Source: an uncultured Gemmatimonadota bacterium (GTDB lineage Bacteria; GCA-2686955). From it: 64,000 nt of DNA. The translations under genes were made by a program, and so were the position numbers. This document shows, piece by piece, positions 1,798 through 55,101 of the stretch (positions are counted from its first letter, which is position 1; every line of letters begins with the position of its first letter). The notes under the pieces are model-generated. The model had not been told where the DNA came from. It worked only from the letters and a program-made list of their open reading frames with translations, and did no database searches. The stretch spans positions 1 through 64,000 of the forward strand of contig CAZBBK010000010.1 in NCBI GenBank assembly GCA_964490075.1. The letters are read 5' to 3'.

Positions 1798-3167
<1,370 letters not shown>

Positions 3168-3171
<4 letters not shown>

Positions 3172-34732: not shown

Positions 34733-34806
34733 GGAGGGCCTCGCGCGAGGTCGCGGAACGATACCGGACCGTCCTCCACAGATGTCGGCAGAGATTGTGC
34801 GCGGCC

Positions 34807-37800: not shown

Positions 37801-37992
37801 CGTGACCAGGTTTTCCATGTCCTGGGGACTGGTGCCGTAGTAGGGCGCGTAGATCATCACGAAGGGGATCTTGATGTCTGGATTCGCCTCGCGCGGCAGC
37901 CGCCCGTACGAGACCACCCCCATCAGCGTCACCATCACCATCGCCGCGAAGATCGTCACCGCGCGCCGGACCGAGATCTCGGTGATTCTCAA
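34807..37992 (-). CDS. RND efflux transporter permease (AcrB/AcrD/AcrF family)
   Basis: 1061 aa; 'LGMLVDNAVVIVENIYR', 'GIMGEF', 'GIVVNNAIVL', 'RFRPVILT'. Confidence 0.95.
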   Translation of the reverse strand: MRITEISVRRAVTIFAAMVMVTLMGVVSYGRLPREANPDIKIPFVMIYAPYYGTSPQDMENLVTRKLERELKGLADLVEMTSTSAEGVSTVVLEFSPDVEMIDAMQRTRDAVEMAKPELPSDVRDDTIVLEISSDDWPIMKLVISGDYDPVRLKKVGEEVQERLEEIAGVLEVDLTGGVEREVRVDIDPDALRFHDLGLVDVQDAIALENVALPSGELALGTYDYQVRLPGELESIDEIGAIVVNTGAPVPVYVRDLASISFGLQDRDTFARLNGVEAVILSIKKRSGENILGIADRVREVLDEMSVSVPEGTRFQIIADSSVYVRNMVSELQNNILSGMILVVAVLFLFLGFTNSIFVGVAIPFSMLITFVVLRFIGYTLNMVVLFSLILALGMLVDNAVVIVENIYRHRAGGYGRIEAALAGTAQVSGAVAASTLTTVCAFLPLAFWPGIMGEFMKYLPITVIITLSASLLVALVFNPVLCATFMRAPAEGRRQQRMHLGDRLMRIGLTSYEPVIRWALRHRALTLGASAAALVGVLVLFGFFNAGIEFFPDTDPTYAYVRVEAPSGTRLEVTDDYSRRVEQEVARVPELVAFVTEVGSGGGGGGGLATGPSGGPAHIALVSMEFLAMEQRQESSRASLAELRKRLADFTGARLVIDKQEDGPPTGKPVTIEITGDDFAVLGDLADQIKRRIRGVPGLVDLQDDYDRGRPQIRVRVDGDKAGRYGLRTWDVANTLRTALQGSDVSKFRIGEDEYDIVVRYGTHARESIEDLREITVFHEGATIPLTAFAEISFDTGLGAIHRIDGRRVVSVTADVAAGFNANAVRERARRRVADLRLPPGNSLSFAGESEDEEEAKAFLSDAFGIALMLILIVLITQFTSVTVPFVILSCVILSLIGVFIGLMVMRTPFGIIMTGVGVISLAGIVVNNAIVLLDYVLKLRAGGLDPFDAIVEAGKTRFRPVILTAVTTILGLIPLTTGVSLDFGLLFEGRFADALIVGGESSQWWGPMGVAVIWGLAVATFLTLVIVPVMYASIEPLLGVGRALLRGVGRGRRDMAPTR

Positions 37993-39044
37993 AGCGGCGC
38001 CTCCCGGCCGCCGGAATCGGTCCCACGCACCTCGACCGCGTCGCCGTCGCTGATCTCGCGCTGCCCGCGCACCACCAGGCGATCGCCCGCCCGCAGCCCT
38101 TCGGCCACGATGACCTTCTCACCCTGGCCGGCCCCCAGCACCAGGGGCCGCCTGCGAGCGGTCTCCTGCTCGACCACGAACACCGCGCCGCCCTGCACCA
38201 GCGCGTCGCGCGGAATGGCGATCACCTCGCGGTGGGCCCGGGTGGGGATCGAGGCCCGCCCGACCACCCCGGGACGTAGCGCCAGATCGGCGTTATCGAC
38301 CACCAGCTCGACCGCAAACTTGCCGGTCGCCGCGTCGGCCTCCAGCCCCACCCAGTCGACCGCGGCGGCGAAGCTGCGCCCGCCCACCCTGAGCTCGGCA
38401 TCGCTGCCGACCTCGATCCGGTCGACCTCCGCGCCGCTGACCGCCCCCTCCAGCACCAGCATGAAGGGATCGACGATCCGCGCCACCCGCGTGCCCGGCG
38501 CCACCAGCTCGCCCCGCTCCACGAAGCGCTCGGCCAGCGCCCCGTCGAAGGGCGCCGTGATGGCGGCCCGCTGGTAGCGGTGGCGGGCGATGTCGACCGC
38601 CGCGCGCGCGCTCCGCAGCGCCGCCTCCCGGCGCACCATCTCCTGGCCCGACACGGCGTCGCTCTGAAAGAGCCCGCGCGTGTGCTCCTCGTCGAAGGCC
38701 GCGGACTCGAGCCGCGCCTCGGCCGCGCTCAGCTCGGCGGCCAGCAAGGTCCGGTCGAGCAGCACCAGCGTCTGGCCTTCGCTCACCGCCGCGCCATGGG
38801 CCACGGGCGTGGCCGCCACCACCCCGCTCTCCAGGCTCGACAGATCGGCCGCGCGCCGCGGGCGGATCGGTCCGGACACCTCGAGCATCTCGGTCAGCGT
38901 CGAGGTTCCGATCTCGACCACGCGCACGTTGCGCGGCGGCTCGGCGGGTGCCTCGGCCGACGACTCGGCGCCACCGCAGCCCGCGGCTCCGATCGCCAAT
39001 GCCAGCAGCGCCGGCCACGCGGCGCGGAATCGAATAGGCTTCAT
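37989..39044 (-). CDS. RND periplasmic adaptor (membrane fusion protein), lipoprotein
   Basis: Start MKPIRF; lipobox 'AAGC'; 'ITAPFDG', 'LRPG', 'GLRAGDRLVVRGQ'. Confidence 0.9.
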   Translation of the reverse strand: MKPIRFRAAWPALLALAIGAAGCGGAESSAEAPAEPPRNVRVVEIGTSTLTEMLEVSGPIRPRRAADLSSLESGVVAATPVAHGAAVSEGQTLVLLDRTLLAAELSAAEARLESAAFDEEHTRGLFQSDAVSGQEMVRREAALRSARAAVDIARHRYQRAAITAPFDGALAERFVERGELVAPGTRVARIVDPFMLVLEGAVSGAEVDRIEVGSDAELRVGGRSFAAAVDWVGLEADAATGKFAVELVVDNADLALRPGVVGRASIPTRAHREVIAIPRDALVQGGAVFVVEQETARRRPLVLGAGQGEKVIVAEGLRAGDRLVVRGQREISDGDAVEVRGTDSGGREAPL

Positions 39045-40480
39045 CGCGTTCTCCCGGATGCGGGCCCTCGCTCCTCGGGTTCGAGCGCCGCCAGCGGCAG
39101 GCTGGGACGAATCCCCAGAGCGCGTTTCAGTGCGGCGCTCAGGGTCAGCACCTCGTGCCGGGCTTGGATCAGGTGGCTGCGGGCGCGGAGCCGCTCCGAC
39201 TGCGCGTTGAGCACCTGCAGATAGTCGGTCTGGTTCTCTCGATAGCGCAACGTCGTCTCGCGCAGCGCGCGCTCGGCGCCGGTCTGGTTCAGCTCCGCCG
39301 CCCGCAGGATGCCGCGCGCCGTGCGCAGATCGCCCAGCAAGCTCACCATCTCCAGCCGCGCCTCCTGGCGCGCCGCGTCGAGCTGCGCCCGGCTGCGCTC
39401 GACCCCCGCCCGCGCCTCGTCGATGCGGCCCCCCGCCAGAAAGCCGTCGAAGATCGGCCAGGTCATCGAGGCGCCCAGGTTCCACGCCTGGGTGCCGGCG
39501 TCGCCCACCTGGCTGAAGGAGCTGCCGACGTAGCCGTAGGAAGCGAAGAGGTTCAGGGATGGATGCCGGTCGGCCCCGCGCGCCGCCGCGCCGCGCTCCA
39601 GCACCTCGGTCGCCAGCTCCAGCGCGCGCAGCGAAGGCCGCCGCAGCGCCATCTCCAGCGCCCGCTCCTCGGCGATCGTCCCGGTCTCGATCTCGACCCG
39701 CGACGCGATCGTCAGCGGCCGCGACGCCGCCCGCCCCATCACGATATTGAGGCGCGACCCGGCGCGGCGCAGGCTCTGCGCCGCCCGGCTCGAGTCGGGA
39801 CGCGCGTTGGCATGCGAGATCGCCGCCCGCAGGGTATCCAGCGGGGTCGCCAGGTCGTGCTCCAGGCGCCGCCGGCTGATCTCCAGGAACTGCGCGCGGG
39901 CCCGCACCTCCGCCGCCACCGCCGCCAGCGCCTCGGCCGCCCGCACCACGTCGTAGTAGGCGCCGAGCGTCGCCTCCTCGGTCGCCAGCTCGGCCTCGCG
40001 GACCAGGTTCGACTGGCGCTCGAGGGCGGCGTGGGCGCCGCCGATGGCGTGCACCGAGCGCGTCGGGTGCACCGTCCACGAAGCGTCGAGGCTGGTCCGC
40101 CAGAACGATTGCGCCGGGATCTCCTCTGGCGCCGGCAGGAAGGAGAAGTCGCCGAAGAGCGAATCCAGCGGGCTGCCGCCACCGCCGCCGAAGGTCGCGT
40201 CCAGGGCGAAGCTGGGATCGCGCGAGCGGATCCACGAGCCGCTCGCCTCCAGGGTGGGCAGCGCGCTCGCCAGCGCCTGGCGCCCCAGCGCGCGGGTCAG
40301 ATCCAGGCCCTTGCGCTGCGCCCGCAAGCCCGCGTTGGCGGCCAGCGCCTCGGCGACGCAAGCCTCGAGATCGAGCACCTCGCTCGCCCCGGGCAGCGCC
40401 TCGATCGGCGCCTCCTGGGCGCGAGTGGGCGGCCCCGGCGCGAGCAGGAGTGCCAGGGTCAGGAGCAGGGGGAAGCGCAT
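39041..40480 (-). CDS. TolC-family outer membrane efflux protein
   Basis: Start MRFPLLL signal peptide; 'LDL..CV..ALA.N', 'LP.L', 'WPIFDGF', 'Y..G/N....L.VL.AQ'. Confidence 0.9.
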   Translation of the reverse strand: MRFPLLLTLALLLAPGPPTRAQEAPIEALPGASEVLDLEACVAEALAANAGLRAQRKGLDLTRALGRQALASALPTLEASGSWIRSRDPSFALDATFGGGGGSPLDSLFGDFSFLPAPEEIPAQSFWRTSLDASWTVHPTRSVHAIGGAHAALERQSNLVREAELATEEATLGAYYDVVRAAEALAAVAAEVRARAQFLEISRRRLEHDLATPLDTLRAAISHANARPDSSRAAQSLRRAGSRLNIVMGRAASRPLTIASRVEIETGTIAEERALEMALRRPSLRALELATEVLERGAAARGADRHPSLNLFASYGYVGSSFSQVGDAGTQAWNLGASMTWPIFDGFLAGGRIDEARAGVERSRAQLDAARQEARLEMVSLLGDLRTARGILRAAELNQTGAERALRETTLRYRENQTDYLQVLNAQSERLRARSHLIQARHEVLTLSAALKRALGIRPSLPLAALEPEERGPASGRTR

Positions 40481-40765
40481 CGCGTCGAGCTCTCGTATTG
40501 CAGAAGGTGGACCGAGCGTCGCACCCCCCGTGGCGACTCCCGAAGATCGAAGGCGTGGAGCATAGCGATCGGAGGAGGCCGCTGGCGGTGGGATCGCGGG
40601 GGGGCTGCTCGAGATACAACGATCCCGACTCCGGATCCGCAATGCCCGCGCAGCGCCGATCCGCGTCGACCGAGATGGGGGCGCGGGGTCTGGTCGTGAT
40701 CGGGTCGATGGAAATTGGGGGACGAGCGCGGGGCACGCTGGCCGCGCATGAAATAGGAGCAGCCG

Positions 40766-41055
40766 ATGGGTATCGCCAAGGTCCTCGTTGCAACCCTGGC
40801 CATCGCGAGCACGCTCGTCGCGCGGGCCGAGACGATCCGCGTGCCATCCGATTCCCCCCGCATCGAGGGATCCCTGTGGCTGGCGGCCGACGACCTGGTC
40901 TTCGTGCCCAACGTCACCGCCGCAGTCAACGCCGTGATCCGCTCACTGCCCCTGGCCCCCGGCGACGAGCTGCTGACCACGAGTCCGCCGAGTTTCTGAG
41001 ACTGGCCGAGCTGCTGCCGGAGCTGCTGCGCGACGAGGGCGCTGCGCCGGTTTGA
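40766..41055 (+). pseudogene. Chimeric relic: beta-helix-family N-terminus plus fragments of a class-V aminotransferase
   Basis: Signal peptide + 'AETIRVPSD' (matches beta-helix starts in this window), then 'DDLVFVPNVTAAVNAVIRSLPLAPGDELLTT', frameshift, then 'EFLRLAELLPELLRDE'. Confidence 0.55.
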
Positions 41056-41172
41056 CGCTGCGCCGGCGAGGGGCAATACTCGGTCGATCGCCGCGCCGCC
41101 CCCTCGCTCGTCCTCCGCCCGAGGCGTGTCCACCAGCGGTCGTGGGGGAGGGGCCGAGGGCAGGAGTCCCCC

Positions 41173-42672
41173 ATGCGTCTTTTCTTCCTCGCCTTGCCGC
41201 TCGCGCTCTCCCTGGGAATCGCCGCACCGGCCGCCGCCGGAAACGCCTTCGACCTGGTCCTGGCCGCCGACCCCTGGGGGGTAGAGATCGTCGCCGCGCG
41301 TGCGCGTGAGGGCGCGCGGCGGCCGCTCGAGCAGGCACCGCGAGCATTGCCGGGAACCTGGCTGGAGATCGTCGATCGCGAGGGAGTGACGCTCGACGCG
41401 ATCCACCTCGGCGATCCTCTGCTGGCACCCTACGACGACTGGAGCGGCCCCGAGCCGCGCGTGGGGCTGGCCCGGCTCGAGGAGCGGCTGCTCTTCGTCC
41501 CGCTGGCGCTGCCGGCCGGCGCCTCGCAGGTGCGGGTGGTCGGCGCCGACCGCGAGGTGCTGGACCGCGTCGACCGCGCCGAGATCGGCCGACTGGCGGC
41601 CCGCCCCGGCGCCGCCGCCGGCGCGGTGGTCGAGGCGGTGCGCATCACCGGCGACCCGGGCAATCGCCTCGATCTGCTCTTCATGGGCGACGGCTACCGG
41701 GTCGAGGAGTGGCCGCGTTTTCGCGACGACGTCGATGCCTGCGCCGACGCGCTGCTCGCATCCGAGCCCTTCCTCAGCTACCCCACCGGTATCAACCTCT
41801 GGCGTCTGCCCCTGCGCTCCGCCGAGTCGGGCGCCGATCACCCTTGCGAGGGGATCCGCAAGCAGACCCGCCTCGACGCCAGCTACGACTGGCCGGCCTG
41901 CCGGACCCGGATGATGTCCTACGACTACCTGGGCACCTGGCTCACCGCGGGCGCCGCGCTGCCGGAGTGGGACCACCTGATCGTGCTGGTCAACGACCCC
42001 GAGCGCGCCGGCGCCATGCCGCCTTTCGCACCGGGACCGGTCTACAGCAACCGCGACTTCGACTATCTCACGGTGCACGAGTGGATCGGCCACGACCTGG
42101 CGCGGCTGATGGACGAGTACGACGCCACCGAGGACGTCGGTCCGATCGGCGTCCCCTACAATCCGAACTGCTCGCTGACCCGCCTCTTGCCGCCCTGGCG
42201 CCACTGGATCCGGGAGGGCGAACCGGGCATCGGCGCTTTTCCCAACTGCGCCTTCGACAACCTCTACCGGCCGACCGACGCGGCCTGCGTGATGCGCGTG
42301 CTGTGGCCGCTCGGCTTCGACGCCTTCTGTCGCGAGCGGGCGATCAAGGGGCTTTTCCTGGTGGTCTCGCCGATCGACGGGACCGAACCGCCCGCCGGTT
42401 CCGAGCTGAACATCGGCGCCCGCGAGGAGATCGATGTCGAGGTACGGCCGCTGCAGCCGGTGAACCACCTCCTGCACTATTCCTGGCTGCTCGACGGGAC
42501 CGAGGTGCAGGCCGGGGAGCGACATTGGTACACCCTCGAGGGGGACGATCTCGGCGTCGGGTCGCACACCTTGCGGGTCGAGGTGGAGGATCCCAATCCG
42601 ATGGTGCTGAAGGATCGTCGCGCGCTGCTCAGCGATGCCGCCGGGTGGCATGTGATCCGGCGCCAGGACTAG
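41173..42672 (+). CDS. Secreted M64-family (IgA peptidase-like) metallopeptidase
   Basis: AGGAG RBS; signal peptide; 'NRLDLLFMGDGY', 'EPF..Y', 'SAESG', 'HEWIGHDLARLMDEY', 'YRPT..CVMR..F..FC.E'; C-terminal Ig-like domain. Confidence 0.82.
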   Translation: MRLFFLALPLALSLGIAAPAAAGNAFDLVLAADPWGVEIVAARAREGARRPLEQAPRALPGTWLEIVDREGVTLDAIHLGDPLLAPYDDWSGPEPRVGLARLEERLLFVPLALPAGASQVRVVGADREVLDRVDRAEIGRLAARPGAAAGAVVEAVRITGDPGNRLDLLFMGDGYRVEEWPRFRDDVDACADALLASEPFLSYPTGINLWRLPLRSAESGADHPCEGIRKQTRLDASYDWPACRTRMMSYDYLGTWLTAGAALPEWDHLIVLVNDPERAGAMPPFAPGPVYSNRDFDYLTVHEWIGHDLARLMDEYDATEDVGPIGVPYNPNCSLTRLLPPWRHWIREGEPGIGAFPNCAFDNLYRPTDAACVMRVLWPLGFDAFCRERAIKGLFLVVSPIDGTEPPAGSELNIGAREEIDVEVRPLQPVNHLLHYSWLLDGTEVQAGERHWYTLEGDDLGVGSHTLRVEVEDPNPMVLKDRRALLSDAAGWHVIRRQD

Positions 42673-42678
42673 GAGCCG

Positions 42679-45600
42679 ATGACCGATCTGATCGGGGGTC
42701 GATACCGTCTCGCCGGGCCGATCGGCCGGGGGGGGATGGGCGAGGTGTTTCGCGCCGAGGATCTGCTGGCGCGGGCACCGGTCTGTCTGAAACGAGCGCG
42801 CGCCCACGACACTCCTTCGGCGGTGCTGGCGCGGGTGCGGCGCGAGTTCCGGGTGGGACAGATGGTGACCCATCCCCATCTCTTGCCGATTCTCGATCTG
42901 ATCGAAGAGGGCGACGAGCCCTGGCTGGTGATGGAGCTGATCGACGGGCCCTCGCTGGAGGCGCTGCTGGAGCGTTGCGGCGGCGAAGCGTTGCCGGCGG
43001 CGGGGGTGGTCGCGCTGGGCCTGCAGCTGGCCCTCGGCCTCGACTGGTTCCACCGCTGGGTCGGCGAGAAGCATCGCGACATCAAGCCCGGCAACGTCTT
43101 GATCGAGCCCGCGTCTCCCGCTGAGAGAGGGGCGCTGGCGCTCGCAGACCTGGTGCCGGCGCATGGCGCCGCGGCCCCCTTCCGCGCCATGATCGCCGAC
43201 TTCGGTCTGGCCACCGGAGAGACCCGCATCTCGCGCACCGAAGCGGTTCCCGGCACCCTGCTCTTCACCGCGCCCGAGGTGCTGCGGCTGGGGAAGAAGG
43301 CGACGATTCAGTCCGATCTCTACTCCCTTGGCCGCACCCTCGAATGCGCGGCGCTCGGCTGCCCGCAGCCGCCCGCGGTCGAGCCGACCTCGACCGACAC
43401 CTTGCGCGAGCTGGTCGGCGACCGCCTGGGACGCGCCCTGGGGCGGCTTCTGGCCCCCGATCCGGCCGAGCGCTTTCCTTCTGCCGCCGAGCTCGGGCGG
43501 GCCCTGACGGAGATCGAGCAGCGCGGATCCAGGCCCCTGGCGGCGCCGAGCGGCCGCCCGCACTCGCTGGTCCGCCGCGATCAGCTCGACGAGCTGCTGC
43601 GGATCTGCGATGCGCCGCTGGGCCGAGAGGGGCGGATGGTGCTGCTGCGGGGGGCGGTGCTGAGCGGGCGCGCGACCTTGCTGCATCGGCTCGGCGAGGC
43701 GCTCGACGCGCCGGCGATCACGGTGCGCCGTGGCGACGAGGCGGCTCTTGCGCCGATCGCCCGGCTGGCGCAGGATCTGATCGCGGCGGCGGCCGCCAGC
43801 GAGGCGGCACGCCGCGAGCGGGTGCTCGGCGACGACGAGGGGGCGCTGCGCCTTCTGATCAAGAAAGCCGAGGCGCCGCGCGGCGAGCGTGCGAGCGCCG
43901 GCGACGCCTTGATGCAGGCGCTGGGTCGGGTGCTGCGGCGCTTCCTCGACGACGGCGGTTCTCATCTCCTGATCCATGATCTCGATCTGGCGCCTCCCGA
44001 AACCCTCGCGGCGCTGCAGAGAGTGATCGAGGCGTGCGGGCGCATGACGCTGGTGGCGAGCGCGGGCCTCGACCGGCGGTCGCGAGGGCTCGAGGGCTTC
44101 CTGGCGGCGGCGCGGCGGCGCTGGGTCGAGATCCACGAGATCGAGTGCGCGGAGCTCTCTCCGCGCGAGGCGGCGCTCTGGCTACGGCGGGTCTGCCCCG
44201 ATGCGAAGCCGGCCGCGGTGCGGGAGCTGGCGGAGCGCGCGCTCGACTGGTTCGGGCGCGGCGCGCGGGCGTTCTCGATGGGCGCGGCGCTGCTGCAGGC
44301 CGAGCGACTGCTGGAGCTAGACGACTCCGGCTCGCCGCGGGCGTTGGCGGCCGAGGACTGGCCGGTGGCGGGGCGTCTCGGGGCCGCCTACGCGCGTATG
44401 AGCGAGGAGCTGGGAGAGGCGGCGCGGAGGGTGTTGGCGGCGCTCGGTGCCGGATCGGAGCACGGTCTGGCCGCGGCGGAGCTGGCGGCCGGCCTGGGGA
44501 GCGACCAGGAGGCGGCCTCCGAGGCGCTGGAGCGGCTCCACCTGCGTGGTCTGGCGCGCATCGCCGCGGGTGCCGGCGATCGGCCGAGCTATGCGCCTGC
44601 GGCGCGGATGCTGGTCGATCCCGCCGTCGCCGAAGCGGTGGCCGAGGGGGACTTTCACCTGCGTGTCGCGGGTGCGCTCGACACCGGTGACGAGCCGATC
44701 ACGCTGCACAAGTGCGCCTTCCACCTGGAGCGCGCGGGCCGCCTCCAGGATGCGATCGAGAAGCTCGGCGCGCTGGCCCGACGCCTCGATCCGGTGGCCC
44801 CCCCGGCCGCCGCGGCGCAGCGCCTGCACGCGCTCTCCCTCGGGCCGGCGCCGGAGATGCGTCCGGCGCTGCTGCTGGAAGCGGCGCACGCGGCGGTCGA
44901 GCACCAGCCGCCCGAGGCGCGCCGGCTCTACGCGGAGGTGTTGGAGCGGCTCGAGCTGGCGCCGCCCGAGCTGCGTCCGCGGATCGAGTGCGAAGCACGC
45001 TGGGGCATGGTGGTGGTTGCACGTTTGATGGGCTGCCCCGCCGAGATGACGTGCGAGCTGAAGACGCTCGATGCCATGGGAGCGCTCGACCGCCCGCTGG
45101 AGGAGCTGCGGCTCCTGGCCCACGCGGCACCGAACCTGGAGACTCACCCCGACGAGGCCCTGGCGCTGCTGGAACGCTGTGCGCCCGAATCTGCGGACGG
45201 GCTCGGCCGAGTTGCGACCCGTTGGGCCGACTACCGCTTCTACGCCCTTTACTTCTCGGGTCGATTCGACGATGCGCAGGAGCACGCGGGGTACTGGCGC
45301 GATGCCGCCCTTGCTGCGGGAGACGACGTCGCCATGTCGATCTTCCTCCAACACCTGGCCAATGCGCGCGCGGTGCGCCGCCGCTCGGAAGAGGCGGAAG
45401 CCACCTTTCGGGACGCCCTGGAGCTGGCCGAGCAGACCGGCGCCGCATTGCGGATCGTGCAAACGGCGCTCAACTTCGGCCGCTTTCTGACGCGCGACGA
45501 CAAGGTCGCGGAGGCCCGCGCGGTGTTTTCTCGTGCGGAGCCTCGAGTGGAAAGCTGCGGGCCCTATCACCAGGCTCGGTTCCGCTACGACCTCGGCACG

Positions 45601-46392
45601 CTATACGCGCGGGTCGAGCTCTGGGACTCCGCGGTGGAACATTACAGTCGATCGTTGGCTGGCCTCGAGAAGCTCGGCCACCGCCACCGCTTCCTGGTGG
45701 CAGCGAATCTCGCTGAAGCCCATCTCAGCACCGGAGATACCGCGGCGGCCCGTGCCGCCTTCGAGCTCCTGGTCACCCAGGTTCGCGAGAAGAGCGATCT
45801 CGCCCCATCGACCCGAGACTCGCTGCTGGCCTGGGCGCGGATCCTCGAAGGGATGTTGCTCCGAGCGGAGGGGCGAGCGGGGCAATCGCTGGAGGTGCTG
45901 CGCAGCGAGCCGAGCGGCGGTCGGCAGGGTGCTGCCCAGGCCGACCTGGTGGAGCACCAGGCACGGGCGCTCTGCGAGGCCTTGCGCAGCCTGGGCAGGG
46001 CAGCCGAGGCCGAACCCATCGCCCGCGAGCGCGTCCAGAGGATCGACACCGACCGGCAGGTCGCCCGCGCTCCCGCCGCGCGCCGCCAACTGGCGGAGAT
46101 CCAGGCCGAGCTCGGCAAGTCGGAGGACGCACTGGGCGAGCTCAAGATCGCCCGTGGCGTCGCGGTGGCGCTGCGCCAGCGCAGGGAGGAATCGAGGATT
46201 TTCGTCTCCGCCGCGCGGGTACACGAGAAATCGGATGATATGAAACTGAGTCTGCGATGTCGTGCGACGGCACGCGCGCTGCGAGAGTGGCTGCGGGCAG
46301 GGCTCGTGAATGAGCCCCCCCCGATAACGCGATCCGGTGAAGCTTCATCTATGGAGACAGGGCGCACTGGGCGTCGCCAGATTCACCCCTGA
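42679..46392 (+). CDS. Hanks-type Ser/Thr kinase fused to a degenerate STAND/AAA_16-like NTPase and TPR array
   Basis: 'IGRGGMGEV', 'VCLK', 'HRDIKPGN', 'DFG', 'APE', 'SDLYSLG'; Walker-A-like 'GAVLSGRAT'; Walker-B-like 'LLIHDLD'; C-terminal TPR helices. Confidence 0.85.
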   Translation: MTDLIGGRYRLAGPIGRGGMGEVFRAEDLLARAPVCLKRARAHDTPSAVLARVRREFRVGQMVTHPHLLPILDLIEEGDEPWLVMELIDGPSLEALLERCGGEALPAAGVVALGLQLALGLDWFHRWVGEKHRDIKPGNVLIEPASPAERGALALADLVPAHGAAAPFRAMIADFGLATGETRISRTEAVPGTLLFTAPEVLRLGKKATIQSDLYSLGRTLECAALGCPQPPAVEPTSTDTLRELVGDRLGRALGRLLAPDPAERFPSAAELGRALTEIEQRGSRPLAAPSGRPHSLVRRDQLDELLRICDAPLGREGRMVLLRGAVLSGRATLLHRLGEALDAPAITVRRGDEAALAPIARLAQDLIAAAAASEAARRERVLGDDEGALRLLIKKAEAPRGERASAGDALMQALGRVLRRFLDDGGSHLLIHDLDLAPPETLAALQRVIEACGRMTLVASAGLDRRSRGLEGFLAAARRRWVEIHEIECAELSPREAALWLRRVCPDAKPAAVRELAERALDWFGRGARAFSMGAALLQAERLLELDDSGSPRALAAEDWPVAGRLGAAYARMSEELGEAARRVLAALGAGSEHGLAAAELAAGLGSDQEAASEALERLHLRGLARIAAGAGDRPSYAPAARMLVDPAVAEAVAEGDFHLRVAGALDTGDEPITLHKCAFHLERAGRLQDAIEKLGALARRLDPVAPPAAAAQRLHALSLGPAPEMRPALLLEAAHAAVEHQPPEARRLYAEVLERLELAPPELRPRIECEARWGMVVVARLMGCPAEMTCELKTLDAMGALDRPLEELRLLAHAAPNLETHPDEALALLERCAPESADGLGRVATRWADYRFYALYFSGRFDDAQEHAGYWRDAALAAGDDVAMSIFLQHLANARAVRRRSEEAEATFRDALELAEQTGAALRIVQTALNFGRFLTRDDKVAEARAVFSRAEPRVESCGPYHQARFRYDLGTLYARVELWDSAVEHYSRSLAGLEKLGHRHRFLVAANLAEAHLSTGDTAAARAAFELLVTQVREKSDLAPSTRDSLLAWARILEGMLLRAEGRAGQSLEVLRSEPSGGRQGAAQADLVEHQARALCEALRSLGRAAEAEPIARERVQRIDTDRQVARAPAARRQLAEIQAELGKSEDALGELKIARGVAVALRQRREESRIFVSAARVHEKSDDMKLSLRCRATARALREWLRAGLVNEPPPITRSGEASSMETGRTGRRQIHP

Positions 46393-46584
46393 TCCGCCAC
46401 ACAATTCGCGACCGGACCCTCCGAATCTCGTTCTTGGGCAAGGCGCCGCGCCGATTCGAACGCAGGCGTAGCAGAGCTGCGTCGGGCAGCGTATCGGTGC
46501 CAGCAACGCAGACCCGAGTGCAAGAGGCGCATGGCCAGTCGCGAACTGGGTGGAAGATTGGGCTCACCAACACCGGAGAGTACG

Positions 46585-47805
46585 ATGGCACGTGCGCTCG
46601 TGGCCGGCGCGGCGCTGGCATTTCTGATCATCGAGGCGGCGGGGGGAGTGATCTCGTCGCCTCGAAGCAGCGCCCCGGCTCCCAACGCCTGCGACACCCA
46701 CACGTCGATCCCCCGACCGGCGCGCCCGCCCGCGCAGCTCACGGACTGCGATCCGCCGCGGATCGTCACCGTCTTCGACCTGGTCGGCCCCGAGCAGATC
46801 GGCGACACCTGGCAGCAGATCGCCGACGACTCTCTGGGCTACGAGCTGATCGAGGTCAGCGCCCAGGAAGCACCGCCCACCGACTCCCTGGAGCTGGGCG
46901 ACGTGGTGGTGTGGACCACCGGCCTCGACACCCTGGAGTCCCCGGGAGACGTCTCCTGCCTGACGGCGGCCGAAGAAGAGACTTTGCTGGCCTATCTGCT
47001 CGACCCGTCGCCCGGCGTGACGCCCGCGCTCTACCTGGAGTCGCCGGACTATCTCGACGAGCAGCTCGGCGACGAGGCGGTGTCGCCCTTGGCCACGGCG
47101 CTCGGGATCGACGATGTCGACACCACCGACTACTCGCGCGACGAGCTGCTGCTGAATACCTGTGGCGAGCGCTGGCACTTCAAGGTCGGCTTCCACCGGC
47201 CTGCCCTGCGGCAGTACAACCAGGCCGACGACTACCGCGTGCTCGGCAGCGTCGGCACCCCTTTCCGGGCGGTCGACCCCGACACCGAGCGCATACCGGG
47301 CCACCTCTGGAACCAGGGCAGCTACAGCGTTCTCTTCACCACCTTCCTGCTGGCGAGCAACTCCGAACCGGGCGATCCGGGCGACTACCCGCAGGATTCG
47401 GTCACCTGGGTGCGCCTGGCGCTGACCGAGCTGGGGCATCCGCCGCGCTTTCACCTGGGGCCGACCTGGGCCGACACCACGCTCAGCGCTCCGCAGGGGG
47501 GAATCGTCTCCTTCGACGCTGTGATCTCGAACTGCATGAACGCCGCATATCGTGACAGAACTCCCGGCCTCGACACCGGGTTCGGGCTGCACGCCGCGAT
47601 CACCGACACCCTGGGTGTGGTGCTGCATCAGTTCAAGAAGATGTCGCTGGCGATGCCGGCCGACGACGACACCGTCGTCGCGCGGGCCCTGGAGATTCCC
47701 TCGTTCCTGGAGCCGGGCAGCTACGTGCTGGTGGAGGAGCTGGGCTACCTGCCGGGCCGCGACCATCTGAAGCGCCGCCGGGGCAGGCTCGAGATCGTGC
47801 CGTGA
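46585..47805 (+). CDS. Secreted hypothetical protein (alpha/beta domain plus C-terminal Ig-like domain)
   Basis: GGAGAG RBS; signal peptide MARALVAGAALAFL; 'DVVVWTTG...LT..EE..L..YL' motif; C-terminal 'LEIP....PGSY...LG..P'. Confidence 0.65.
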   Translation: MARALVAGAALAFLIIEAAGGVISSPRSSAPAPNACDTHTSIPRPARPPAQLTDCDPPRIVTVFDLVGPEQIGDTWQQIADDSLGYELIEVSAQEAPPTDSLELGDVVVWTTGLDTLESPGDVSCLTAAEEETLLAYLLDPSPGVTPALYLESPDYLDEQLGDEAVSPLATALGIDDVDTTDYSRDELLLNTCGERWHFKVGFHRPALRQYNQADDYRVLGSVGTPFRAVDPDTERIPGHLWNQGSYSVLFTTFLLASNSEPGDPGDYPQDSVTWVRLALTELGHPPRFHLGPTWADTTLSAPQGGIVSFDAVISNCMNAAYRDRTPGLDTGFGLHAAITDTLGVVLHQFKKMSLAMPADDDTVVARALEIPSFLEPGSYVLVEELGYLPGRDHLKRRRGRLEIVP

Positions 47806-49583
47806 GCCGGTCGCGCGATTCGAAAGGGAGCGCCGCCGCCGGCAGCTTCGACGAGGTGATTTCGCGCGCCGGCGACGTGCTCGGAGTGATCGAGCGCAGC
47901 GCGGCCGAGATCGACCCCGAGGGGCCGCATGTCGAGCAGACCGCGGAGGCGCTGCTCGCGTCCTGCGAGCGGCTGCGCAAGCTGCTGGGCGAGGCGCGCG
48001 CGGCGTCGCGGATGAGCGTGGCGGTACCGAGCCGCGAGTCGGCAATGCCGCGCGAGGCGGAGGCGGCGTCGGCGCGGCCCGGGATCGGGGTGCCGCGCGG
48101 GGACCACCCGGCCCAGGTCTCCCAGGACGCCGCGCTCCAGCTCGCCCGCGGCATCGACGCCGACCTGGTGCTGGTGGTAAAGACCCGAGGCGAGGGCGAT
48201 CCCTTCGAGCAGCTCGGTCGCGCCGGCTCCCATCCGCGTCACGACCAGCCCGAGCGGGCCCAGGAGACGCTCGACGCCAGCCGCGCGATCATCGAGAACG
48301 CGCGCAGCCGCAAGCAGCCCGAGCTGGTGGTCGACGCCTGGAACGATCCGCGCTACCAGCGCCGTCGCAGCGTCACCAGCCAGAACATCCGCTCGGTGAT
48401 GGCGGCACCGATGCTGAACCGCCAGGGAGTGGTCTTCGGCGTGGTCTACGCCGATCGCCGCGGCATCGCCTGCCGGCCATTCAGCGGCCGCGAGCAGCGC
48501 AGTTTCGAGGAGTTCGTCGCCGATACCACCGAGCTGCTGCTGGCGGCCCGCGATCTGGCGCGCAGCCTTCCCGACACCAGCGCCGACGCCGAGACCCGAC
48601 TGCGCGCCACGCGCAAGATCCTCGGCGATGCCGAGCCGATCGAGAAGGCGCGCCAGCTGGCGTCCGCCTACGCCACCACCCACGCCCCGGTGCTGATCAC
48701 CGGGGAGCGCGGCACCGGCAAGGAGCTCTTCGCGCGCGCGATCCACGACATGAGCCCCTGGCACGCCGGGCGCCTGGTGCGATTGCAGGGGCCCTTTCTG
48801 GTGGGCGACACCGGCAACGCCGAGATCCGCGGCTGGCGCAAGGGCGCCTTCACCGGTGCCATCGAGTCGCAGCCCGGCGCCTTCGAGCAGGCCGCCGACG
48901 GCACCCTCTTCATCGACGAGGTCGCCGATCTCGACCCCAAGGCCCAGGCGGCGCTGCTGGTCGCGCTCGACCCGGGAGTGGTGCGGCGCATGGGCGAGAC
49001 CGAGCCGCGGCGGGTCACGGCGCGGGTGATCGCGGCCACCAACCGCGACCTGCACGGCCTCGCCGCGGAAGGTCTGTTCCGGCGCGATCTTCTCGATCGC
49101 CTGTCGGCCCTGGAGCTGAGACTGCCGCCGCTGCGCGAGCGGCGCGCCGATCTGCTGCTGCTCTTCCGCCAGTTCATGGCGTCCACCGATCTGCCCCTGC
49201 AGAGTCGCCCCGGCGCGCTCTCGGAGGAGGCCGAGCGCTGGCTCATGTCTCATCCCCTGGAAGGGAATGTGCGCGAGCTGAAGAACCTGGCGACCCGCTC
49301 CTGTGTGCTGGCCGCGTTTCGCGACTCGCCGGTCATCGAGCCAGTCGACTTGATCGATCCCGCGAAGCCCTCGCCCTTGCTGCCCTGGCCCCAGTTCCGC
49401 CGCACCATGCTCGACCCGCTCTCGGGCGCGGAACGCGAGCGGGAGCTCGCCGCTTGGCTCGACGCCTGGCATCGCGAGACCCAGGGATCACGCAAAGCGA
49501 CCTGTGAGCAGGGCTGCCTGAGCGACACGCGGCTCAGGACTCTGATCAAAGAGGCGGGAAAGGGCACCGGCTGGGTGGGCTGA
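47802..49583 (+). CDS. GAF-domain sigma-54 enhancer-binding protein
   Basis: GAF 'DAWNDPRY..RSV....IRSVMAAPM....GVVYAD'; Walker A GERGTGKE; intact GAFTGA; 'LFIDEV'; 'AATNRDL', 'FRRDLLDRL', 'GNVREL'; divergent Fis-like HTH. Confidence 0.9.
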   Translation: MSRSRDSKGSAAAGSFDEVISRAGDVLGVIERSAAEIDPEGPHVEQTAEALLASCERLRKLLGEARAASRMSVAVPSRESAMPREAEAASARPGIGVPRGDHPAQVSQDAALQLARGIDADLVLVVKTRGEGDPFEQLGRAGSHPRHDQPERAQETLDASRAIIENARSRKQPELVVDAWNDPRYQRRRSVTSQNIRSVMAAPMLNRQGVVFGVVYADRRGIACRPFSGREQRSFEEFVADTTELLLAARDLARSLPDTSADAETRLRATRKILGDAEPIEKARQLASAYATTHAPVLITGERGTGKELFARAIHDMSPWHAGRLVRLQGPFLVGDTGNAEIRGWRKGAFTGAIESQPGAFEQAADGTLFIDEVADLDPKAQAALLVALDPGVVRRMGETEPRRVTARVIAATNRDLHGLAAEGLFRRDLLDRLSALELRLPPLRERRADLLLLFRQFMASTDLPLQSRPGALSEEAERWLMSHPLEGNVRELKNLATRSCVLAAFRDSPVIEPVDLIDPAKPSPLLPWPQFRRTMLDPLSGAERERELAAWLDAWHRETQGSRKATCEQGCLSDTRLRTLIKEAGKGTGWVG

Positions 49584-49679
49584 GCGCCACCGCCGCCCCG
49601 CAAAACTGCTGTCTCGTCTGCGCGATACCCGCAGAAGTGTGCCCTGTCCGTGCGGAGGCTGTTCATGTAAAACGTTGCA

Positions 49680-49692
49680 CATCAAGTAATTA
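49680..49692 (+). promoter_or_regulatory. IHF-like binding site
   Basis: cATCAAgtaaTTA matches WATCAANNNNTTR except at the first base; lies just upstream of a -24/-12 promoter. Confidence 0.55.
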
Positions 49693-49708
49693 GCTCGTTT
49701 CGCCCAGG

Positions 49709-49723
49709 TGGCGAGGCGCTTGC
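49709..49723 (+). promoter_or_regulatory. Sigma-54 (-24/-12) promoter upstream of the ECF sigma gene
   Basis: TGGC-GAGGCGC-TTGC with exact GG-N10-GC spacing, 60 nt before ATG49784, immediately downstream of an EBP gene. Confidence 0.65.
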
Positions 49724-49783
49724 CTTGGGAGTCCCCCGGAGGCCGGCCACGGTGGCCCGGCCCGAACGCCCGGGAAGGCTCCC

Positions 49784-50500
49784 ATGCAGACCCAAGATCT
49801 CCAGACCGCGACCGACCAACTCCACCAGCTCTTCTCCGAGATGTCCCGGCAGGGAGGCGAGGGATGCTCGCCCACATCTCCCCAGATGGCCCGACTCCAC
49901 GAGCTGCTCTTCGACGGCCCCCGCTCGCCGGTGGCGGCGATGGTGCGCAAGTACTTGAGCCGCTGCGAGGGCTATCGCCGCCTGCTGCAGTCGACGACCG
50001 ACGAGACCGACCTGCTGAACGATGTCTTCATCGCCCTGGTGCGGACTCTGGAGGCGGGCCAGTACCGCGGCGCCGAGGCTCGGCCCTTCGCCTTCGTCAA
50101 GACCATCGCGACCCGACTGATCCGCCAGCAGGCGCTGCGCGGCCGGACACGCGCGATCCACACCGCACGCGGCTCCGCGGACGACGAATGCGACCCGATT
50201 CAGCGGGTCGCCGACGACACCACCGAGAACCCGGAGCAGGCCTTCGACCGGGACCAGATCGCGGCATGGGTAGCCCGTCTCGGCGCCCGCCTGAGCGAAG
50301 CCGAGCGCTGGATGCTCCGGGCCCGCTACGCGGAGCGTTGCAGCCACGAGCAGATCGCGGCGCGGCTCGGCAAGCCCTCCGCTGGTGCCTCGAGGATCGG
50401 CCTGCTGCGGGTCCACCGGCGCATCGAGCGGATGATCCAGGAGATGCCGGGTTGCGAAGGGACCCTGCGCGGTGCCATGGCCCGCCTGGCCGCGGCCTGA
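49784..50500 (+). CDS. ECF-type sigma-70 factor (divergent)
   Basis: Region 2 'DETDLLNDVFIAL...PFAFVKTIATRLIRQ'; region 4 'LSEAERWMLRARY..CSHEQIAARLG...R..L.R'. Confidence 0.75.
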   Translation: MQTQDLQTATDQLHQLFSEMSRQGGEGCSPTSPQMARLHELLFDGPRSPVAAMVRKYLSRCEGYRRLLQSTTDETDLLNDVFIALVRTLEAGQYRGAEARPFAFVKTIATRLIRQQALRGRTRAIHTARGSADDECDPIQRVADDTTENPEQAFDRDQIAAWVARLGARLSEAERWMLRARYAERCSHEQIAARLGKPSAGASRIGLLRVHRRIERMIQEMPGCEGTLRGAMARLAAA

Positions 50501-50596
50501 TCAGGGCGGTGGCTTCATGCGCGCCGGGAAGATGACGATCTCCGGGTATACTGGCCGGCCGATCCACCGGCCGCCCCTTTCCCCGCAGGTTCGCGC

Positions 50597-52552
50597 ATGC
50601 CCGCCAAACAACGCATCTCCCTGGCCGCCGCCCCCGGCCTGGCCTTCTTCGCCGGCGCGCTCCTGGGCGGTGCCGAGGCGTTGCTCTACCTGATCCGCTA
50701 CCCGGGTCTCAGGCCGATGGCGGGGGCCCAGCTCGCGGTCTCGGCCGCCGCCGTCGGGTTGGCGTTCATGCTCGGCTCGCTGCTGCCGCTGCTGCTGGCT
50801 CGTCTGGCCGCCGCGAAGGGGCGCGAGCGACGCGATCCGCGCTGGCAGCTCGGCGCCGCGCTTGCGCTGCTGGTCGCGGGCGGCGCGGGCGTGATGCTGC
50901 TGGCCACCTTCCGCGGCACCCTGGTGTTCCGCCATCTGCCCGGCGGCGACGCGGGGCGGCTGCTGGCGCAGCTCGTGATCGTTGCCCTTTCGCTCTTGGT
51001 GGCCGCCTGGCTCACGCCGCGGCTTCAGCGGCGCCTGGCCCGCGAGCGCGGCATGCTGGCGCGCCTGGCGGGTCGCGGCCGGATGCTGCTGGGCGGCGCC
51101 GCGGCGCTGCCGCTGGTGGCAGCCGCCATCGTCGCCCTCTTCGGTCGTGCCGAGCGCGCGGCGCCGGCGCCCAGCGCCGATGCTCCCAACCTGATCCTGA
51201 TCTCGATCGACACCCTGCGCGCCGACCACCTGGGCTGCTACGGCTACCAGCGTCCCACCAGTCCCAACATCGACCGCTTGGCCGCCGCGGGCGTGCTCTT
51301 CGATTGCGCGACCACCACCTGGCCCTCCTCCGCCCCCGGGCACGCGTCGATGCTCACCGGACTCTACCCCCCGACCCACGGCGTGATGGGCAACGGTTAC
51401 CGCCTCTCTCCGGTGGTGCCGACCCTCACCGGCGCGGCCCGCGCGGCCGGCCTGCGCACCGCCGGCTTCATCAACAATCCCTGGCTCTCCTACACCCTCG
51501 GATTCTCCCGCGACTTCGAGACATATTTCGATGCGGAGCGGCTGGAGGTCGCCGCCGAGGCCTGGGTCGAGCTGCTGCTCCAAAATGTGTCGCTTTATCG
51601 ATTGGTGCTGGGCATCGGTCCCGGCGAGCGCCAGCCGGCGACCCGCCTCGCCACGCGCTGGATGGAGCGCCACCGCGACGAACGTTTCTTCCTCTTTTTG
51701 CACCTGCTCGATCCGCACCAGCCCTATCGGCCGGATCCCGCCTTCAAGGACCGTTTCCTCGCCGAAGCCGGGCTCCCCGACCCCGGCGACACCCGCACCT
51801 ACATGGGTACCGCACGCAAGTCCGGGCGCGGCGGCATGGGGCGCAACACCGGCGAGACCGTGCCGATGAGCGCTGAGCTCGAGGATGCGGTGGTGGCCCG
51901 TTACGACGAGTGCGTGCTCAACGCCGATGCCCGGATCGGCGAGTTCTTGGCGGCGCTCGAGCGTCTCGGCCTGAGCGAGCGCAGCGTGGTGCTGCTGACC
52001 TCCGACCACGGCGAGAACATGGCCGCCAACGCCCCGCGCTTCCACCACGAGGGACTCTACGAGTCGTCGTTGCACGTCCCCTTCATCTTGCGCGGTCCCG
52101 GCGTCGAGGCGGCCGCCGCGCGGCGTGGCGACGCGGTCAGCCTGGTCGACATCGTGCCGACTCTGGCCGACCTGGGCGGGCTGATCACGCCGCCGCTGCA
52201 GGCCGGGGTGTCGCTGGTCGCCGCCGACCTCGATCTCTCCGGTCGCGGGGTGCTGGCGATCGAAGGGGTGGAGGGACCAGAGCAGCACCGCGCGCTCTCG
52301 ACCGCCGAGTGGAAGCTGGTGCAGGGGGACGAGATCGGTCGCCGCCTGGTGGCGATCGAGCGCGGCGCCGGCAGGCACCGGAGCGAAGGCGATCTCGCGG
52401 ACGCCTGGCCGCAGCTCACGGACAGCCTCGAAGCATGGCTGGCGCGCGACTACGCCTCTTCACTCGAAGACGCCTACCCCTCCGAGGAGGGCACCGGCGA
52501 GCTCGACGCCGAGCGCATCGAGCAGCTCAAAGCGCTCGGCTACCTGAACTAG
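50597..52552 (+). CDS. Membrane-anchored sulfatase-like hydrolase/transferase
   Basis: Several TM segments; 'PNLILISIDTLRADH', 'SSAPGHASMLTG', 'DPH.PY', 'TSDHGE', 'HVP', 'DIVPT', C-terminal 'LKALGYLN'. Confidence 0.9.
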   Translation: MPAKQRISLAAAPGLAFFAGALLGGAEALLYLIRYPGLRPMAGAQLAVSAAAVGLAFMLGSLLPLLLARLAAAKGRERRDPRWQLGAALALLVAGGAGVMLLATFRGTLVFRHLPGGDAGRLLAQLVIVALSLLVAAWLTPRLQRRLARERGMLARLAGRGRMLLGGAAALPLVAAAIVALFGRAERAAPAPSADAPNLILISIDTLRADHLGCYGYQRPTSPNIDRLAAAGVLFDCATTTWPSSAPGHASMLTGLYPPTHGVMGNGYRLSPVVPTLTGAARAAGLRTAGFINNPWLSYTLGFSRDFETYFDAERLEVAAEAWVELLLQNVSLYRLVLGIGPGERQPATRLATRWMERHRDERFFLFLHLLDPHQPYRPDPAFKDRFLAEAGLPDPGDTRTYMGTARKSGRGGMGRNTGETVPMSAELEDAVVARYDECVLNADARIGEFLAALERLGLSERSVVLLTSDHGENMAANAPRFHHEGLYESSLHVPFILRGPGVEAAAARRGDAVSLVDIVPTLADLGGLITPPLQAGVSLVAADLDLSGRGVLAIEGVEGPEQHRALSTAEWKLVQGDEIGRRLVAIERGAGRHRSEGDLADAWPQLTDSLEAWLARDYASSLEDAYPSEEGTGELDAERIEQLKALGYLN

Positions 52553-52762
52553 CTCTGCTTCGGTGGCTTCGTCGACATCCCGCCCTCCGAGCGCAGCCCG
52601 TCGACCGTGCGCGCGAAGCTCTCGATCAAGGCGTCTAGCTTGCTAGGCATTCGGCCAGATCTCCTCGACGCCGCGAAGTGCGACGCGACGAAACTCGGGG
52701 CTGACGCGGGCGAAGTCGACCAGATCGGCCGCCAGCGCGGGCCACGCGACCCGAAAGCGCAT
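52549..52762 (-). pseudogene. Probable relic of an MNT (nucleotidyltransferase)-HEPN toxin-antitoxin pair
   Basis: Minus-strand mini-ORFs 52762-52643 (..DLVDFARVSPEFRRVALRGVEEIWPNA) and overlapping 52650-52549 (MPSKLDALIESFARTVDGL..) resemble an MNT C-terminus and a HEPN N-terminal helix. Confidence 0.35.
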
Positions 52763-52853
52763 TGGCGTCGTAGCTCGCCGCTCTCGATCGAGATCGAGGA
52801 GTTGTGAGGGGAATGACGCTGGCGAGTGAGCCCGTCTCGCCCCCAGCCTCGCC

Positions 52854-54995: not shown

Positions 54996-55088
54996 TTTCG
55001 GGTTCTCCGGCGGAGTTTCGTTCTCTACATCGGCAGCTCGACAGGGCGCAGCATATCCGCATCCTCCGCGCCGGCGCGCACGCCGTCC

Positions 55089-55094
55089 TACAAT
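55089..55094 (+). promoter_or_regulatory. -10 hexamer positioned for a leaderless transcript
   Basis: TACAAT ends 7 nt before ATG55102; no Shine-Dalgarno in between. Confidence 0.45.
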
Positions 55095-55101
55095 CGCCCC
55101 C

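Follow-up and report, generated by a model that had tools for sequence, protein, structure and literature searches.

A conserved gene cluster with a predicted sigma-54-dependent promoter before an orphan ECF sigma factor gene in a marine Gemmatimonadota bacterium

The 64,000-nucleotide stretch of DNA analysed here (hereafter the window) covers positions 1 to 64,000 of contig CAZBBK010000010.1 in assembly GCA_964490075.1, from an uncultured Gemmatimonadota bacterium of a marine, rarely sampled lineage. The assembly (G000) comprises 5.7 Mb in 136 contigs and is 95% complete. The window carries a cluster of genes on the plus strand, among them genes encoding an enhancer-binding protein (EBP) and an extracytoplasmic function (ECF) sigma factor. 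The first gene (41173-42672) encodes an M64-like protein of 499 amino acids (Peptidase_M64, 77.1 bits). It is followed by a kinase-STAND-TPR gene (42679-46392; 1237 amino acids; Pkinase 93 bits, TPR_12 45-55 bits), a gene for an orphan exported protein without Pfam or NCBIfam family (46531-47805; 424 amino acids), a GAF-EBP gene (47802-49583; 593 amino acids; Sigma54_activat 153.7, GAF 36.5 and AAA_lid_14 49.6 bits), and the ECF gene (49784-50500; 238 amino acids). A gene for a sulfatase-fold protein comes next (50597-52552; 651 amino acids; Sulfatase 150.5 bits, residues 197-528).

The M64-like and kinase genes are separated by a 6-nt gap (42673-42678), and the stop of the orphan gene overlaps the start of the EBP gene by 4 nt. 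The coordinates and strand of the open reading frames (ORFs) agree with the five co-oriented genes, the gap and the overlap given in a preliminary description of this DNA. The genome collection holds five species genomes for the host phylum, and the cluster was compared with G002 and G003, which belong to one genus, and with G001, from a third genus (assembly 83% complete). All six genes, the sulfatase-fold gene included, are present in G002 in the same order with 57-70% amino acid identity; the 4-nt overlap is found there as well, and the exported-protein gene overlaps the kinase gene by 20 nt. A 2.5-kb contig of G003 carries the EBP gene, the ECF gene and the start of the sulfatase gene. The kinase (on three contigs), the orphan protein and the EBP were identified in G001. 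The order kinase, exported protein, EBP is common to three genera, and two genera share the M64-like and ECF genes as well as the sulfatase gene that follows. Because of these only kinase, orphan protein and EBP reach G001, the conserved core of the predicted unit is formed by the kinase, the orphan protein and the EBP. The ECF gene was found in three of the five phylum genomes (G000, G002 and G003), each time adjacent to the EBP gene. A contig search for ECF or exported-protein loci outside the lineage retrieved two loci, both of the same lineage, and two metagenome scans retrieved none. The co-occurrence of the genes in related genomes, which the preliminary description had named as one check on its proposal, was borne out, with six syntenic genes in G002 and with no ECF found in G001. 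Judged by this synteny, the five genes together with the sulfatase gene are predicted to be a real regulatory unit conserved across genera.

A 200-nt spacer separates the EBP and ECF genes and contains four elements, all on the plus strand. Two half-palindromes, the candidate upstream activating sequences (UAS) 1, CGCAAAACTG (49599..49608), and 2, CGCAGAAGTG (49630..49639), are conserved in G000, G002 and G003, and UAS 1 is a perfect 16-bp palindrome in G002 (CCCGCAAAAGTGCGGG). They are followed by an AT-rich IHF-like bend site, ATCAAGTAATTAG (49681..49693), whose core CAA-N4-TTAG is invariant in the three genomes, and by a sigma-54 -24/-12 element, TGGCGAGGCGCTTGC (49709..49723), with the pattern GG-N10-GC. 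The alignment of the three genomes shows TGGCGAG-N4-TTGCCTTG-GAG, CAA-N4-TTAG and both upstream sites as invariant blocks. UAS 1 and UAS 2 are 31 bp apart in all three genomes; the distance is 76-78 bp from UAS 2 to TGGC, 25-26 bp from CAA-N4-TTAG to TGGC, and 74-75 nt from TGGC to the ATG of the ECF gene. The spacings vary by no more than 2 bp over three genomes and two genera. An rpoN gene (432.5 bits) was also identified in G000, so that the GG-N10-GC and TGGC...TTGC patterns, the upstream sites and the sigma factor itself, as looked for in a putative sigma-54-dependent promoter, are all present. These features support the prediction of a conserved sigma-54 promoter of the enhancer type for the ECF gene, adjoining the EBP gene.

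An IHF site would be expected as an AT-rich, WATCAANNNNTTR-like sequence between the UAS and the -24 element, in a genome that encodes IHF. An IHF site and a -24/-12 promoter had both been placed directly before the ECF gene earlier. The promoter is conserved as described; of the IHF-like site ATCAAGTAATTAG only CAA-N4-TTAG is kept across the three genomes, and the one IHF/HU-family gene of G000, best matched as IHF, scored 102.7 bits against the IHF-beta model, below the cut-off of 115. No terminator-like site was found between the EBP and ECF genes, a hairpin in the 5' leader of the ECF transcript was no more stable than shuffled sequences (z 0.45) and was dropped, and an Rfam scan of 46300-50700 gave no match at E<=1. 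A NifA-type TGT-N10-ACA at 49666-49681, noticed by eye, was rejected as it is not kept in G002 and G003.

The EBP contains GERGTGKE, FIDEV and GAFTGA, which we take to be its Walker A, Walker B and GAFTGA motifs. They are intact and conserved in three orthologues, and the protein has the sigma-54 interaction AAA+ domain typical of EBPs. The orthologues share 70% and 47% amino acid identity with it. An additional N-terminal stretch of about 100 amino acids is conserved, and so are the C-terminal 80 amino acids. Like EBPs of the NifA/NorR/FhlA type, the protein has a GAF domain ahead of a GAFTGA-bearing sigma-54 AAA+ domain, and NifA (209 bits, cut-off 529) and NorR (205 bits, cut-off 476) are its top NCBIfam matches. 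It differs from this type in scoring far under the equivalog cut-offs, in the extra N-terminus, and in that no HTH_8 was detected.

The profile searches of G000 gave 52 matches to Sigma54_activat, 22 to ECF profiles and 19 to Pkinase, the latter in 18 ORFs. With about 45 EBPs in 5.7 Mb, the sigma-54 network of this genome is unusually large. Sigma-54-like promoters also lie directly 3' of kinase-linked EBP genes at C9, C94, C22 and C30. At two further loci of G000 (C9:62143-66773 and C16:2484-4467), an EBP gene (C9:66267, C16:3970) precedes a sigma-54-like promoter, TGGCACGCCGGTTGC or TGGTCCGCTTGTTGC, beyond which lies a gene for a sigma-70-family sigma factor; placing alternative sigma genes under sigma-54 seems to be a recurrent arrangement in this genome. 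Near the stop of the G001 EBP gene, three sigma-54-like cores were counted against 1.01 expected, which is not significant, with 13 of 200 shuffles equalling it. The window itself contains another EBP gene at 1798-3171 on the minus strand, which encodes a standard NtrC-type response regulator (Response_reg, Sigma54_activat, HTH_8).

The ECF protein matches TIGR02937 with 42.9 bits, exactly the cut-off, and lies below the Pfam cut-offs for Sigma70_r4_2 (25.5 bits, cut-off 25.7) and r2 (15.2 bits, cut-off 24). By these profiles it is a predicted group 4 ECF sigma factor, albeit a borderline and very divergent one. About 45 amino acids at its N-terminus form a conserved extension. When 1.84 billion representatives were searched exhaustively with its profile, 133 matched at E<=1e-3; only three of these reached E<1e-20, namely the ECF itself, P0011 (42% identity) and P0012 (33%). 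No HrpL model was among its 16 NCBIfam matches. As stated in the preliminary description, it has no neighbouring anti-sigma: there is no anti-sigma-like gene between the end of the ECF gene at 50500 and the next gene at 50597, the product of which begins directly with membrane helices. In the absence of an adjacent anti-sigma, transcriptional control is therefore the best reading for this ECF.

The kinase protein is cytoplasmic, with no membrane segment seen, and is arranged as a Hanks-type kinase, an AAA_16-like NTPase, a winged-helix-like stretch and TPR repeats. The kinase motifs HRD (HRDIKPGN), DFG and APE were read in the sequence, as in Hanks-type kinases, and are kept in G002. The AAA_16 match is weak (21 bits, cut-off 32.6), and its Walker A reads G-A-V-L-S-G-R-A-T, with Arg for Lys, which departs from the GxxxxGK[ST] of STAND proteins; G-x4-G-R-A-T is found in three genera. 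Homology to AAA_16 is nevertheless likely, since hhalign aligned this part with the AAA_16 regions of paralogues with a probability of 77% and an E value of 2e-5. The earlier designation kinase-STAND-TPR thus stands for the kinase and TPR parts, while STAND rests on a sub-threshold AAA_16 match with a degenerate P-loop.

Kinase and EBP genes are repeatedly linked in G000. Among the 18 kinase ORFs, three are fused to an EBP and five lie directly before one (C22, C10b, C9, C94 and that of the window), giving 8 of 18. Three others are fused to a GAF-histidine kinase and one precedes a GAF-PAS-histidine kinase. The fused genes at C30:38308-43491, C84:8479-13755 and C18:53752-58839 encode single chains of about 1700 amino acids (1727, 1758 and 1695, respectively) with the order Pkinase-TPR-GAF-Sigma54_activat-HTH_8. 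The same front half (Pkinase-AAA_16-TPR) is fused to GAF-HisKA-HATPase at C79, C15 and C31. At C10b and C9, a kinase protein of about 1260 amino acids is followed by a GAF-EBP, and at C4 one of about 1250 amino acids is followed by a GAF-PAS-histidine kinase. A paralogous split pair is located on the contig of the window, about 26 kb beyond it (C10:75791-81149, minus strand), where the gene for a 1258-amino-acid kinase overlaps that for a 617-amino-acid GAF-EBP with HTH_8; this pair has no intervening gene, and no sigma-54-like core was found in the 600 nt downstream.

The single-chain form is widespread, with 324 clusters at E<=1e-20, and both PF00069 and PF00158 were identified in 117 of the 120 listed among them, from Sorangium, Planctomycetota, Bacteroidota, Myxococcota and others. 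Its members are annotated as "sigma 54-interacting transcriptional regulator", and some as PknK (JGI). The EBP of the window shares 34% identity with the C30 chain in an alignment covering residues 1294-1652 of the latter. The domain order of this unnamed Pkinase-AAA_16-TPR-GAF-Sigma54_activat-HTH_8 family matches that of the kinase protein and the EBP in series, and its members often adjoin their own sigma-54 promoter, as the EBP gene of the window adjoins a predicted one. In contrast to the family, the chain of the window is split between TPR and GAF with an exported-protein gene in between, and it has a degenerate P-loop, no recognised HTH_8 and a sigma-factor gene as its predicted target. 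Because of the domain fusions and the repeated adjacency, the kinase-STAND-TPR protein most likely works with the GAF-EBP as its input module. These kinase-STAND-TPR-GAF sigma-54 activators are common in databases, their function is undescribed in the literature searched, and that search retrieved no paper on kinase-fused EBPs.

Taken together, these features suggest that the locus is probably a three-tier transcription cascade in one conserved cluster, a reading we favour while allowing appreciable room for doubt. The part of it that runs from the EBP through sigma-54 to the ECF is well supported by the predicted promoter. In this cascade, a sigma-70-type promoter would drive an operon of the M64-like, kinase-STAND-TPR, orphan exported protein and GAF-EBP genes. 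The candidate for this promoter is TTGACG-17-AATACT (41052..41080, plus strand), about 90 nt before the M64-like gene, recognised by consensus match only; the region 40800-52800 contains two such sigma-70-like sites, where shuffled sequences gave an expectation of 0.3. Kinase-STAND-TPR protein and GAF-EBP would be the two halves of a polypeptide that is single in many bacteria and three times in G000, with the kinase protein most likely acting as the input module. The active EBP would act at the two sites, which are spaced by 31 bp and lie roughly 100 and 130 bp before the start. These sites are seen as conserved sequence, and their binding by this EBP is suggested by adjacency. With the DNA bent at the IHF-like site, the EBP would open the TGGCGAG-N4-TTGC promoter, which would transcribe the orphan ECF without anti-sigma, and the level of ECF would be the point of control, as for HrpL. 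The ECF would then direct RNA polymerase, more speculatively, to promoters of envelope or exported hydrolase genes such as the neighbouring genes of the alkaline-phosphatase superfamily. The transcriptional gating of the ECF by sigma-54 and an EBP, as first proposed, fits well with the conserved promoter, the adjoining EBP gene and the presence of rpoN.

Several observations weigh against this cascade. The ECF was not found in G001 (83%-complete assembly, E<=0.01), where a convergent sulfatase-like gene comes after the EBP gene; the link between EBP and ECF is therefore not universal. The conserved promoter represents only two independent lineages, because G002 and G003 are of one genus. The bare pattern TGGC-N7-TTGC occurs twice in the window against 1.67 expected, i.e. 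at chance level, and 353 times in the genome. In favour of the site at the ECF gene, it alone among these 353 matches has a UAS half-site in the 400 bp before it, and two UAS half-sites within 80 bp are found only here in the 5.7 Mb of G000, although this uniqueness is partly circular because the pattern was derived from this very site. The promoter stands above chance because of its place and its conservation, not because of the core pattern. Neither HTH_8 nor any other HTH family was detected at E up to 10 in the C-terminal 84-86 amino acids of the three EBP orthologues, so DNA binding by the EBP is only predicted; hhalign aligned this C-terminus with the HTH regions of paralogues in the expected register, weakly, with a probability of 10%. 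About 45 other EBPs in the genome are potential users of the UAS sites. The kinase protein resembles the fused forms in the kinase domain only (29% identity), and its remainder gave no BLAST similarity. In a quick AAA+ tree of 44 EBPs, the EBP of the window grouped with three kinase-adjacent EBPs with SH-aLRT values of 82-83 and a long-branch warning.

The cascade may be specified further as a split of the giant kinase-STAND-TPR-GAF activators. The kinase would control the EBP in trans, either through docking or by phosphorylating Ser/Thr residues within the conserved N-terminal 100 amino acids of the EBP, the EBP would serve one promoter in the genome, the ECF would serve an exo- or envelope-hydrolase regulon, and the exported protein at the split point would have co-evolved. 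We put this forward tentatively, as a possible but doubtful extension; if true, it would represent a Hanks-kinase-controlled EBP.

Alternatively, the EBP could be a self-contained GAF ligand sensor of the NifA/NorR type, and the kinase protein could be merely co-transcribed, with other substrates or in the pathway of the exported proteins. Kinase-free GAF-EBPs are common and well studied, and the best NCBIfam matches of this EBP, though sub-cut-off, are NifA and NorR. This locus is also the only one with an unrelated gene between kinase and EBP, other pairs abutting or overlapping, and the C-terminal part of its kinase protein has no sequence similarity to the fused forms. We nevertheless consider this alternative unlikely, since the order kinase, exported protein, EBP is kept in three genera, the same split recurs three more times in G000 (C10b, C9 and C4), and the fused forms have an equal domain order.

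The preliminary description had further proposed that the output of the ECF could be gated at two levels: its transcription through sigma-54 and the EBP, and its direct phosphorylation by the Hanks-type kinase, a mechanism known from ECF43. The active-looking kinase predicted within the conserved cluster and the ECF without an adjacent anti-sigma gene are compatible with this. Kinase-associated ECF groups do exist: PMC7826278 lists ECF43, 59-62, 217, 267 and 283, along with groups under transcriptional control. As in the ECF43 systems EcfP/PknT of Vibrio parahaemolyticus and EcfK/PknS of Xanthomonas citri, described in PMC13147305, an anti-sigma-less ECF lies near a Hanks-type kinase gene; here the kinase gene is three genes upstream of the ECF gene and is kept in G002. 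According to the same paper, EcfK is also phosphorylated in the linker between sigma2 and sigma4; the linker of the window ECF contains Ser/Thr and could conceivably be phosphorylated likewise. The sequence of the ECF argues against the proposal. ECF43 sigmas have lost the acidic residues at sigma-2.2 and have an uncharged QTTA with a conserved Thr instead (PMC13147305), whereas the sigma-2.2 motif of the window ECF stays acidic (D73-E-T-D76-L-L-N-D80), as do those of P0011 (E-E-A-D) and P0012 (D-E-R-D). The uncharged QTTA with a phospho-acceptor Thr is thus absent, and Thr75, the only Thr in this DETD-LL-ND motif, is Ala or Arg in these two distant relatives. ECF43 kinases commonly have a transmembrane region (PMC13147305), whereas none was seen in the kinase of the window. 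The gene for this kinase is also separated from the ECF gene, lying three genes off, and fusion and adjacency at other loci link the kinase to the EBP. G001 keeps the kinase, and no ECF was found there. With DxxD kept, Thr75 unconserved and the fusions tying the kinase to the EBP, the second gate is not supported, and we regard it as very improbable. It is just as improbable that a different EBP uses the UAS sites while the adjacent one acts elsewhere or from solution: HTH_8 is undetected in all three orthologues, the genome has 52 Sigma54_activat matches and the G001 EBP has no ECF gene beside it, but the EBP and ECF genes are adjacent in all three ECF-bearing genomes, EBP genes of G000 commonly precede a likely target promoter, and the EBP C-terminus is conserved and aligns, weakly, in the expected register with the HTH regions of paralogues.

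In its wiring, the favoured cascade matches that of hrpL of Pseudomonas syringae, an ECF gene without known anti-sigma, with a sigma-54 promoter, UAS, IHF and the EBPs HrpR/HrpS (PMC5263251). Both the HrpR/HrpS-sigma-54-HrpL system (ECF32) and the locus described here have an anti-sigma-less ECF, a sigma-54 promoter (predicted here) with UAS and an IHF or IHF-like site, and EBPs without receiver domain (PMC5263251 and PMC7826278). They differ in that one GAF-EBP takes the place of the HrpR/HrpS pair, the EBP gene immediately precedes the ECF gene, genes for type III secretion are absent here, and a kinase-STAND-TPR protein is attached. The ECF of the window also represents an orphan family, and the likeness drawn here is one of wiring. 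Cascades from sigma-54 to an ECF were known before from plant pathogens (HrpL), and Hanks kinases were known to switch ECF43; the link between kinase and EBP sets the locus apart from the latter. The locus recombines known kinds of regulation and is not a new kind of system. The preliminary description had not recognised the combination as a named one, which is fair, although the parts are of known kinds (an HrpRS/HrpL-type cascade and the kinase-fused EBPs of databases). The locus presents the kinase-fused activator family in two polypeptides, with one delimited, conserved predicted target promoter and an easily scored ECF output, which makes it a convenient place to study how kinase and STAND modules affect an EBP. 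The ECF family that it contributes is very divergent, counts about five known sequences and comes from a phylum represented by only five species genomes.

The M64-like protein is predicted to be exported, with an N-terminal signal-like segment (by eye). Its zinc motif (nt 42073-42090) reads HEWIGH, i.e. HExxxH, which by alignment carries a one-residue insertion relative to the "HEF-GH" of 4df9 and 3p1v, two solved structures of M64-like proteins; the same HEWIGH is found in the G002 orthologue (65% identity). The HExxH zinc-binding motif is absent despite the 77.1-bit family match. Because HEWIGH departs from HEF-GH and is kept in G002, the protein may not be a working peptidase, and it may be a pseudo-peptidase or have an altered metal site. 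Its first designation as a secreted M64 peptidase is supported as to the family and the signal-like segment, and is weakened by the disrupted HExxH. The orphan protein is exported or membrane-anchored, with a hydrophobic N-terminus from Met19 (nt 46585, by eye). It has two matches among 5.8 billion clusters and is present in 3 of 41 genomes searched, with 58% identity to the G002 orthologue and 44% to that of G001. AlphaFold2 prediction from the three orthologues gave an unusable fold (pLDDT 32), and ThuA/DUF4350-like leads from a structure atlas, obtained with a G002-type homologue, were weak (TM <0.5, feature score 0.88) and were rejected.

The sulfatase-fold protein belongs to the alkaline-phosphatase superfamily, is membrane-anchored with a hydrophobic N-terminal region of about 190 amino acids, and shares 70% identity with its G002 orthologue. 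The motif typical of sulfatases, CxPxR, was not seen by eye. A TATACT hexamer with flanking G residues lies before its gene (50545-50553), is conserved in G000 and G002, and may be the gene's own -10 element. Four genes of the alkaline-phosphatase superfamily (Phosphodiest or Sulfatase) flank the cluster, at 30697-32598 (-), 32600-35320 (-), 50597-52552 (+) and 52854-55523 (-); they are possible members of the regulon. Two sulfatase-like genes come after the EBP gene in G001 too.

An aminotransferase-like remnant at 40450-41055, noticed by eye, matched no Pfam family and was dropped. Directly upstream of the cluster, on the opposite strand, lies an RND efflux operon (34807-40847). In G002 this operon does not accompany the cluster, which has a different gene upstream there. 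The operon encodes an outer membrane factor (39041-40642), an HlyD-type adaptor within the ORF at 37989-40847, and an AcrB-type pump (34807-37992).

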